IMG/VR virus record: IMGVR_UViG_2778261457_000003
Location: 1 to 64,000 of that record
DNA from: a virus
Lineage: Duplodnaviria > Heunggongvirae > Uroviricota > Caudoviricetes
DNA length: 64,000 bases
Strand: one strand, 5' to 3'
Part shown: positions 9,001-12,000 of the stretch, in pieces
Position numbering within the stretch: the first letter of the stretch is position 1
How the letters are laid out: every line of letters begins with the position of its first letter
Program-made: the position numbers

Positions 9001-12000
9001 CTTTTGCAACTGTACTTGTTCAGTCAGAACATTGAGCATTCTATTTGCTCTTTGAGCAACCTTGTGAAGCTGGCTGGAATCACTCATCGAAAGTCATCCT
9101 TTATGCTGTATTTTTGAATTTAATTAAAAATGCTGCATAAAATAATAATGTATGCGTAGATGCTTGTACATAGCATTCTCTGCATGTTTGGTTCATTTTG
9201 CACGATTGAGAGTTACAAGGAGGGCACAAAAAAGCCCCGTTCAGGGGCATCAGTGTTATTTGCTAAGAGCAGCGAATAATCGTTCGAAATCGATAGTATC
9301 TATAGCACGCGTAAGCGCCGGAAGTTCAGCCTCAAAGTACCCGTGTCGATCGTAAAAGAAGGGACCGAAGAGCGAGGCATGTTGGATTCTACTTCGCCCC
9401 AGCCCGGACACACAGTTAAGCCCATTACCGGCTAAAAGGCTAAAAAACTTCTCTGGATTATCGTGGTAAAGCTGGGAATCAATGGTGGCGGTTAACTCTT
9501 CCATAGGGAAGCACACCCGCCCTGTATCCCAGGGATATTTAGTCCGAAGCATAAACATTGCTTTCAGCAATTCACATTGAGCGCGGATCGCGTCCGGTTC
9601 ATAGCCAGATATGGAGACATAAGCCACGTCCCTCATTCCTGCGTCATCTTTGAAAGTCACGATAGAAGTAACATCCAGCTCTTTTTCGAAAGAGCAAGCA
9701 GCATCTACTGGACGCTGAAGTAAATCATTCGACTTAATGCGCTCGAGAATCCCTCCCCACATATCATTTAGATATTCGATATGAGCCAAAACCTTATCAA
9801 GACACTCTCGTGTAAACCATTCAGTATGCCCGCCACCGACGCTTTTCTCCCACGGCGCATTCCAGGGGAAAAAGGTTGCGTGTAAAGCCCGCTCAAGATT
9901 AACCATTACCAAACGCGTACCACGATAGACCCGTGAAAGCGCAAAATCGGGACTCACTTGTAGCCCTTTAAACCGTGCCAATGGACCACATGAAATGCCG
10001 ATTTTAAAAGTATCTCCGTTCTCTGGCACCAGAACGTAGAGGTAGTGTTGTTTCTCTTCTTGCATATCAATACCACTGCTTGATGAGAACCGCGCAAATG
10101 TTGACTATGCGCGAAGGTTAATGTGAATAGTTGACTATGCGCGATGTGACTACAGTCAAAAGTTGACTGTAGTCGATTTAACTCCACCAAAGATCGACTA
10201 TGTAAGATATTGTCGGGAGAAACGTTGACTATACGCGATGAAATGCCCCTAAAAGCCATCTCAATAGCGACTTGCAGAATATTGACGCCAGCAAAAATCC
10301 ACCAGCGTCAACGAATGTCGCCTATAGTCAACTTCTCGCTATCGCATATAGTCAATATTATGGATTGCGCTTATGGATCTGGAAGCCGATTTTCCTGCCG
10401 TTTTTTATCTCTGAAAATTTAAGATATTCAATAGCTTCCAAATCTTTCATGGCTTTTCTGATAACGCTATTTTGCACGCTAACGGATGATTTGAGATTAA
10501 GCCTCGCTCTAAGGCGCTCAATGCTGACAGGTGCCGGGTTGGCGGGTAGAGCCTCAAAGAATGTATACAGTACCTTGGCCGTCTCTTTGCGCCCTAGTTT
10601 ATCCAGCATCTTCAGCTTCAGGATTCGCTTATAGTCAACATAGTAAAGTTCAGATAGCTGTTTCTGCGGCTGGATCTCGATAACATCAAGCTCGGTATTC
10701 AGGCTGCTATATGCCAACAAGTTGACGTTAATGTTATTGAGATGACCTTTTGCCGCCGGGAAGCGGAATTTGACAACTGTCTGCTGAATGCGTGTCAGAG
10801 AGTCATCAATACTTTTACGGAACGCCTTTGAAAGGCGCTTACGTGGATAGCCGCATCGATCGGCAAACTCGGAGAATGGCAGGGTGATTATGCCGTCATC
10901 ATCAGGTGCGTAGTCAAACAACGCGGAGGTTATGCCCACCCACACCTTAAAATCAGTATCCATATCCAGGCGTGGACCATGAATTTCAATTCCCTCATAG
11001 CCTTCCTGCTCAACAATTTTGAGGCTTGATAGTTCTTCAGTTGCGTTCGTTGTGTTTGTTGTAACTGACGATCCGCGACGTAGCGCCACATTGGTAGATT
11101 TTAAGGTTGGCACAAACACACCTAAGCGCAACAAAGCGATGGGTTGTATAGTGCTGTTGTTATTGGGCTTCAGGCTGTGGATTTCTCCTGTATTTCCTGC
11201 AACTTCTTCAACGCTAAGGAAGCCTTTACTTTCTTCCGGCATCACGGTTTCTCCATGTGTGGCGCGGCCTGACGTCAATTTGGATGGCTGTTATCAACAG
11301 CTGTGAATATTCAGACTCTAAAATCGCTTACAGTCAATGTTTCTGTCGCGTATAGTCAACAATAAATCGCGTGCAGTCAACAATAAATCGTGCACAGTCA
11401 ACATAAAATCGCGTATAGTCAATGTTGATCCCATTTCAGGCCAGTAATGACGCGGCTTACAGCGATCCGGGATCTTCTTTGGATCTTCCTAGGTTCTCTT
11501 TAGGATCTGTTTATTGGATCTATGCTGTGGATAAGTTGAATAAACCGGCCAACAAAGCCGGTTGGAAGGAAGTCATATTATTCTACGCTTTCGATAAGAA
11601 GACCATGTTCATAACATTTAAGCTCATCGCCTTCGTACAGGAATTGGTATCCAATACCACCATTTTCATGGACATTAGGGAATAACTCATAACTCACTGA
11701 AGAGCAAATCACACCAATGCAACGATCAACGCCTTCTCGTTCTTCAGTGCTGAAAAAATCCTCTTCGGTAAGAACATGAGTACATTGCTCATCAGCATAG
11801 GTCGGAAATACATGCTCGATGCAATCCGGGTGTTTTAAACCAAGCTGATCGGCAAGCTCGAAAGCATGACGGTATTGTTCAGATCCTGGCTTGCCAACAG
11901 TGATGTGCTCAATTTTGTAGATTGAAGTCGCTTTGTTGATAGTTTGCTTTACTGTTACTTTATCAGACATAAAAATCCCTTTTAGTTACCGCTGATAGCG

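Follow-up and report, generated by a model that had tools for sequence, protein, structure and literature searches.

What does a nuclease gene do between the replication and partition genes of a P1-like phage-plasmid? The question is raised by a stretch of 64,000 nucleotides (positions 1 to 64,000 of IMG/VR virus record IMGVR_UViG_2778261457_000003, Caudoviricetes), hereafter called the window. On its minus strand, the gene order is repA', iterons, ORF269, par promoter, parA and parB, where ORF269 is an open reading frame (ORF) of 269 codons whose product resembles nucleases of the GIY-YIG superfamily. A preliminary description, made from the sequence of the window alone, had regarded ORF269 as an accessory gene inserted between the incA iterons of P1 and parA.

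The coding sequence of ORF269 occupies positions 9256..10065 on the minus strand (269 amino acids plus stop, ATG start), and it is followed on the same strand, at 9224..9248, by an intrinsic terminator composed of a 5-bp GC-rich hairpin (GCCCC-TGAAC-GGGGC) and a T-run, TTTTTTGTGC. The preliminary description had placed a 269-amino-acid ORF with its own terminator at 9228-10065, a range that therefore corresponds to the coding sequence plus the terminator. In the PGAP annotation, the product is named “GIY-YIG nuclease family protein”; it corresponds to gp57 of phage JL22. Among the PHROGs, PHROG 2876 (function unknown) matched ORF269 over its full length and PHROG 681 (“endonuclease”) matched its N-terminus.

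A profile search, which had been proposed as a check on the assignment of the N-terminus to the T5orf172 domain, supports that assignment. Pfam T5orf172 (PF10544), a family of the GIY-YIG superfamily, matched residues 8-85 (positions 9811..10044, minus strand) with 26.5 bits against a gathering cutoff of 20 (E 9.5e-6, profile positions 2-87 of 101), and the three stretches originally pointed out, YLYVLV, FKIGIS and GGHTEWF, are all present. MUG113 and a URI-fold toxin family, which belong to the same clan, gave sub-threshold matches. The catalytic residues of the GIY-YIG superfamily can be recognized as Y8/Y10 (GIY-like), K21-I22-G23 (YIG-like), R31 and E82, the last of which would, by the family consensus, be the metal-binding glutamate. 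In an alignment with the GIY-YIG structure 1ywl, the motif coincides with Y8/Y10, R31 and the region of G23. Together with E58, H62 and W83-F84, these residues (Y8, Y10, K21-G23, R31, E58, H62, E82-W83-F84) are invariant in 43 population sequences and in a 44%-identical orthologue, P0004, which bears the same precomputed Pfam T5orf172 match. Since the ORF is intact at the same place in the lineage that carries this orthologue and the residues of the nuclease motif are invariant there, ORF269 is a genuine gene, not an ORF that is open by chance. A recent foreign origin, considered on the basis of composition, was rejected because the GC content of the gene (0.47) is like that of its neighbours (0.45-0.46).

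We compared the region with the genome of P1 (NC_005856). The window is 98.9% identical to P1 up to position 9189 and 96% identical from position 11440 on, with BLAST breakpoints at 9189/9190 and 11439/11440. Between the breakpoints there is no nucleotide similarity to P1 except one 59-bp match of 76% identity inside repA. This heterologous block stands in place of P1 positions 61316-62806, which contain incA, repA and the incC iterons. It carries origin iterons (11319..11443, five copies with 21-bp spacing), repA' (10358..11242, minus strand), which encodes a p0111-type initiator of 294 amino acids from the PGAP ATG that is 42% identical to P1 RepA, control iterons downstream of repA' (10096..10356), ORF269 and the terminator, ORF269 being the gene at the par-proximal edge. 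On the origin side, single-nucleotide polymorphisms (SNPs) linked to the replicon type extend for about 200 bp, to ~11640, and vanish beyond. Window positions 11440-11640 contain 40 differences from P1, and 30 sites there are almost perfectly linked to the replicon type. It thus follows that the cassette includes the rest of oriR and that the functional cassette, which we place at 9190..11640, is longer than the BLAST breakpoint implies. On the opposite side, homology to P1 ends at window position ~9185-9189, some 15-20 bp upstream of the -35 element (9165-9170) of the par promoter, Ppar (9142..9170, minus strand), whose sequence is common to P1.

Thus, ORF269 was not inserted into a P1 replicon, as had been supposed. 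One heterologous block, extending from 9190 to 11439 by BLAST or to ~11640 by SNPs, replaces the incC-repA-incA region of P1, and ORF269 is the terminal gene of this alternative replicon cassette. The gene does lie between replication and partition modules, i.e., between the repA-side iterons at 10096-10356 and Ppar, but these iterons are not P1 incA. The latter identification was rejected since, in addition to the low identity between RepA' and P1 RepA and the lack of nucleotide similarity, the iteron consensus is different (TTGACTATRCGCGA in the window versus TGTGTGCTGGAGGGAA in P1). Of the control iterons, two (10316-10356) are oriented as in the origin and four or five (10096-10238) are inverted; the last one ends ~30 bp ahead of the ORF269 ATG. 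No remnant of ORF269 was detected by tblastn at E up to 10 in the 170-bp spacer between Ppar and incA of P1, and no remnant or cognate cleavage site was found there. The dimorphism of IncY and p0111 replicons, of which the window represents the p0111 form, is published (PMC9603915, PMC10879196, PMC5241659), and PMC9603915 has repA' together with an “unknown gp57” of JL22 replacing P1 repA; the unknown gene was not analysed in those papers.

The linkage of ORF269 to repA' of this cassette is nearly complete in the population. The gene is present in 401 PLSDB plasmid records (repA' in 399) and in 412 of 5426 complete E. coli genomes, nearly always on plasmids, while 12 phage records, among them SJ46, JL22, RCS47 and phi456, match a 1.27-kb region with 98.7-99.8% identity. 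The 44 loci obtained from IMG/VR and GTDB all show repA', ORF269, parA and parB in succession and at fixed spacing, apart from a 30-bp offset in the position of repA' in two loci. Conversely, ORF269 is absent from all 68 loci that a search with P1 RepA retrieved, which are mostly IncY-type. The presence of the gene is therefore sporadic at one locus (44/44 p0111-type versus 0/68 IncY-type), with flanks that are otherwise ~99% identical. Within the p0111 type, the gene is practically fixed. Conservation at this position in relatives, which the preliminary description had taken as speaking against its view, is thus seen in half of the P1-like population, but not in P1.

Three plasmids carry a related repA' (74-76% nucleotide and ~85% amino acid identity) with the same origin and iteron layout in another phage-like backbone and lack ORF269: L003 (CP042620.1, 88524-89408), NZ_CP085065.1 and NZ_CP097097.1. 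It follows that the p0111-type replicon is shared between phage-plasmid families and that it does not need ORF269. In these plasmids, repA' lies beside tail genes, and no par operon or nuclease gene is adjacent to it. The accessory status proposed for the gene is borne out by its absence from P1, from the 68 loci retrieved with P1 RepA and from the plasmids with related RepA', and by its inactivation in 8 of the 44 loci. We consider it nearly certain that ORF269 is a genuine T5orf172 gene that belongs to the p0111 cassette.

The orthologue P0004, the sole distant homologue of ORF269 found, is encoded by a 95.7-kb Logan contig (L004) that represents a diverged P1-like element; its proteins are 80% (gp23), 89% (ParA), 67% (ParB) and 84% (RepA') identical to those of the window. 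The order of repA', iterons, ORF and parA is the same as in the window, and the ORF is likewise the last gene before a sharp homology boundary. The closest plasmid relatives of L004 are from Salmonella (NZ_CP146848, L117) and have an IncY-like RepA that is 84% identical to that of P1, P1-type iterons and no ORF269. Similarity between L004 and L117 resumes 84 bp past the stop codon of the ORF, and the boundary between the window and P1 lies 66 bp past the stop codon of ORF269. Since the second lineage has both forms, with a boundary just beyond the nuclease gene, the choice between an IncY cassette and a p0111 cassette with nuclease either is older than the split of the lineages or has been re-created in both.

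ORF269 evolves fast compared with its neighbours. Over the 44 loci, the ratio of nonsynonymous to synonymous nucleotide diversity (piN/piS) is 0.33 for ORF269 (0.30-0.31 for each of its halves taken separately), 0.02 for repA', 0.002 for parA and 0.055 for parB. The gene is disrupted in eight loci by at least four independent events: S112* (five loci), Q228* (one), W68* (one) and insertion of an IS200/IS605 element (one). An N-terminally truncated product of 168 amino acids forms a cluster of 229 sequences, compared to 1241 full-length ones. Judged from these patterns of substitution and decay, ORF269 is a functional gene under weak constraint that can be dispensed with and is frequently lost. 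In the locus with the insertion (L044, 4295-~5830), the nuclease gene is split after ~codon 98 by an element of the IS200/IS605 type with a 389-amino-acid TnpB-like ORF and a 141-amino-acid ORF resembling Y1 transposase, as judged by eye from the translations.

Downstream of the nuclease domain, the protein consists of a variable linker, predicted to be disordered (residues ~113-132, positions 9670..9729, minus strand; predicted local distance difference test (pLDDT) score below 50 at residues 121-148), and a lineage-restricted α/β domain (residues ~133-269, positions 9259..9669, minus strand). Identity to P0004 is 60% in the N-terminal domain, 35% in the linker and 33% in the C-terminal domain; the 44% identity of the whole proteins compares with 84% for RepA', 89% for ParA and 80% for gp23. 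When a profile of the two C-terminal sequences was run exhaustively with HMMER against 1.84 billion representative proteins, P0004 was the only hit besides fragments or fusions of the E. coli gene. Among 5.8 billion proteins searched with a word index, only the p0111 allele series, the 44%-identical orthologue and fragments came up. Neither tblastn of plasmids and phages nor a scan of GTDB genomes revealed further C-terminal relatives. The C-terminal part matched no Pfam family and, besides its own, no PHROG at E up to 10, and searches of ORF269 against NCBIfam (no match) and PADLOC (PADLOC-DB v2, 5027 models; no family at E up to 1) were negative, in agreement with the preliminary description, where the C-terminus was said to have no recognizable domain. 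The secondary structure predicted for residues 157-231 (helix, strand, helix, helix, strand, strand) is compatible with a winged helix. The domain may thus contain one at ~157-231, which we treat as a lead from modelling and not as a finding; the winged-helix structural hits were non-significant and based on a model with a pLDDT of 57.6. C218 is the only cysteine of the C-terminal domain that is conserved across both lineages. One of the fragments and fusions, P0005 (197 amino acids, from a 108-kb E. coli plasmid), joins an unrelated N-terminus of 80 amino acids to ORF269 residues ~106-223 and points to a copy of the locus that has been rearranged.

What, then, could the gene be doing in the cassette? 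Our preferred reading, which we put forward tentatively, is that ORF269, as a free-standing nuclease akin to homing endonucleases, works for its own cassette in competition with the other replicon type. The protein would be a two-domain DNA endonuclease with a T5orf172/GIY-YIG catalytic N-terminus, a flexible linker and a fast-evolving C-terminus presumed to bind DNA; cells with the element in its plasmid state would produce little of it. If a P1-like rival bearing the other replicon allele came to share such a cell, ORF269 would cut a site in or near the rival allele. The break might then be repaired from the p0111 copy, with the repA'-iteron-nuclease block being copied between the shared oriR and Ppar homologies, or it might eliminate the rival. 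Either outcome would favour the cassette of ORF269 itself; plasmid maintenance would not be served.

The profile of the gene is of the homing type, in that an N-terminal GIY-YIG-type domain, a linker and a fast-evolving second domain are combined with a position at the edge of a block and next to essential genes (ORF269 is the last gene before the boundary of homology with P1), an all-or-none distribution, dispensability and recurrent decay. The free-standing GIY-YIG homing endonucleases Seg and Mob of phage T4 and I-TevI have an N-terminal GIY-YIG domain, a linker and a C-terminal DNA-binding domain. Genes of the Seg/Mob type are located in intergenic positions between conserved genes, cut the allele that lacks the gene and co-convert adjacent markers. 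ORF269 resembles them in its domain order and intergenic position, and cutting and co-conversion are proposed for it by analogy. Unlike them, it falls into the T5orf172 subfamily and not into the canonical GIY-YIG Pfam family, and it has no sequence similarity to them beyond the catalytic core.

A closer parallel is provided by the T5orf172 homing genes of ICP1 and other phages (Barth, Dunham & Seed 2023, PMC10448857), which share the Pfam nuclease domain, are free-standing beside essential genes and lie at boundaries of exchanged blocks, a described pattern for T5orf172 genes. Like ORF269, they combine the nuclease with another domain and are often inactivated in natural isolates. In contrast to them, the nuclease domain of ORF269 is N-terminal, and its second domain has no relatives and, because the conserved cysteine pattern is absent, is not a CapR/DUF723/DUF4397 zinc finger. 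The carrier also differs, being the plasmid-state replicon cassette of a temperate phage-plasmid; for ORF269, homing is a proposal.

Several observations weigh against ORF269 being a homing-type nuclease. No p0111 cassette without ORF269 was found among PLSDB plasmids, so that the classical cycle of homing by gain and loss cannot be seen within one allele. The frequencies of the two replicon types are about equal (63 versus 52 of 119 phage-plasmids, PMC10879196; a similar frequency is also reported in PMC5241659), which gives no sign of a sweep. On the parA side there is no co-conversion gradient, SNPs relative to P1 being evenly spread, and SNPs lack any linkage to the replicon type from the very first 100 bp onward. 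No recognizable DNA-binding domain was found in ORF269, nor the zinc-finger module typical of phage T5orf172 homing genes (no CxxC, no Pfam match), and the structure models are of low confidence (pLDDT 57.6 and 42.2). No σ70 consensus promoter was found between the repA' stop codon and the ORF269 ATG, and the ribosome-binding site is weak. Cleavage activity, target site and expression of ORF269 are all putative.

The flanks of the cassette do not help the case either. On trees of the flanks, the replicon type changes at least 14 times (parAB) and 19 times (upfA-upfB), compared to 20 and ~24-25 times with shuffled labels. However, the type of par (P1-like or with a 58%-identical ParA), which involves no nuclease, changes 16 times on the upstream-flank tree versus 21 times when shuffled. 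Since the par type is as scrambled as the replicon type, general mosaic recombination suffices to explain both, and flank phylogeny was rejected as specific evidence for homing.

The first alternative to be weighed is that ORF269 is a defence nuclease directed against phages or mobile elements, i.e., cargo that would cut incoming foreign DNA and so shield the lysogen and, with it, the phage-plasmid. The nuclease domain, the location in the region for maintenance of the plasmid state and the fast evolution with frequent loss, as is seen in conflict genes, would all be expected of such a protein, and phage-plasmids are reported to carry defence genes. Yet the gene stands alone, with no sensor or partner, is perfectly linked to one replicon type at a fixed position, with none of the hotspot-like variability of defence cargo, and its family is found nowhere beyond P1-like elements. 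With no match among the 5027 PADLOC models or in NCBIfam, assignment to a defence system was rejected, and we regard a defence role as unlikely.

The homing reading can also be stated in a much stronger form: a homing-type nuclease that moves an entire plasmid replicon as its unit would cleave the IncY allele, perhaps at the iterons by means of a cryptic Rep-like winged helix, convert or eliminate rival P1-like prophages, and thereby drive switches of incompatibility group. We consider this combination of claims distinctly unlikely to hold in full. A T5orf172 nuclease that takes part in replicon conflict is known from ICP1 Odn (Gp88; PMC8263062), and this nuclease domain has been turned repeatedly on the origins of rival replicons, which counts for the preferred reading as well; for ORF269, such a conflict is suggested by analogy. 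The His/Tyr usual in the first helix after the catalytic Arg seems to be missing in ORF269, in a by-eye and unaligned reading near R31, as is reported for Odn in the same paper. The DNA-binding domain of Odn is, unlike the second domain of ORF269, N-terminal and 42% identical to the RepA_N domain of its target (PMC8263062), and the hints of a Rep-like winged helix in the models of ORF269 are weak.

Very doubtful is the related alternative that ORF269 acts as an Odn-like origin-directed nuclease proper, its C-terminus being a cryptic Rep-type winged helix that would recognize IncY iterons so that the enzyme cuts the rival origin. A Rep-derived DNA-binding domain (an Odn-like chimera) was rejected at the sequence level, hhalign giving a probability of 0.2% against P1 RepA, RepA' and a 12-member Rep alignment; this result lowers the claim of homology to Odn, not the claim of an Odn-like way of working. 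The structural hits, as said above, are non-significant, and the winged-helix fold is very common. In addition, the 33% identity of the C-terminal domain across the lineages sits badly with a conserved target, both IncY and p0111 iterons being conserved across them.

Just as doubtful, in our view, is a domesticated T5orf172 DNA-binding regulator, comparable to CapR of PLE (elements that resemble phage-inducible chromosomal islands), which may tune the expression of repA', the iterons or par, or insulate Ppar, with no cutting. Proteins related to T5orf172 have been domesticated as repressors (CapR), the ATG of ORF269 lies ~30 bp from the last iteron and its terminator abuts Ppar, and a piN/piS of 0.33 indicates moderate purifying selection. 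However, the residues of the catalytic motif, which a pure binder would not need, are strictly retained, plasmids and phages with nonsense alleles persist, and related replicons work without ORF269. Finally, it is improbable that ORF269 is a relic, without function today and maintained only through its place in a cassette that is passed on as one unit, since, despite disruption of 18% of loci, constraint relaxed relative to the neighbours and the lack of a detected promoter, the frame is open and the motifs are conserved down to 44% identity, piN/piS is well below 1 and more than 80% of copies are intact across ~400 plasmids.

The family name of ORF269 in databases and its co-replacement with repA' (in one paper, PMC9603915) are already known. 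New here are the limits of the cassette and the edge position of the gene, its domain identity and relative-less second domain, its dispensability, the contrast in rate with its neighbours, the frequency of pseudogenes and the dimorphism in two lineages. P1-like phage-plasmids are common (~8% of complete E. coli genomes) and spread extended-spectrum β-lactamase (ESBL) and mcr resistance genes, and the two replicon types serve in typing. If the nuclease does bias competition or gene conversion between the types, this would help to explain how the dimorphism is maintained, a homing-type nuclease could mobilize a replicon and thereby an incompatibility group, and two natural alleles with natural nonsense mutants would offer a simple system. 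If it does not, ORF269 would be one more uncharacterized T5orf172 gene. The main correction is that the P1-based expectation of incA followed by parA fails for p0111-type elements.

Some further features of the region can be described. The flank of the cassette on the par side is conserved and P1-type, with parA at 7891..9087 and parB at 6873..7874, both on the minus strand. The p0111 cassette always adjoins P1-type parA/parB (43 of the 43 loci with parA in range), and par in IncY loci either is P1-type or has a ParA of only 58% identity. The likely reason for the restriction of p0111 to P1-type par is that a crossover joining the cassette to the diverged par operon would find no homologous sequence. 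Two IMG/VR loci, L115 and L116, have a third type of RepA, which is 41% identical to P1 RepA, with a parA of the 58% type ~420 bp downstream and no ORF between.

Between the repA' stop codon and the inverted iterons, a hairpin of 13-14 bp (10281..10313, minus strand; folding energy -22.8 kcal/mol, z -3.8) could be the repA' terminator, an operator or a protein-binding site. On this hairpin, which is conserved in part in L004, depends whether transcription from PrepA' can continue into ORF269. The two-orientation layout of the control iterons, two direct copies and then four or five inverted ones, is kept in three diverged replicons (window 10096-10356, L003 5775-5998 and L004 7896-8110), and the TTGACT cores of the inverted control iterons point back at repA'.

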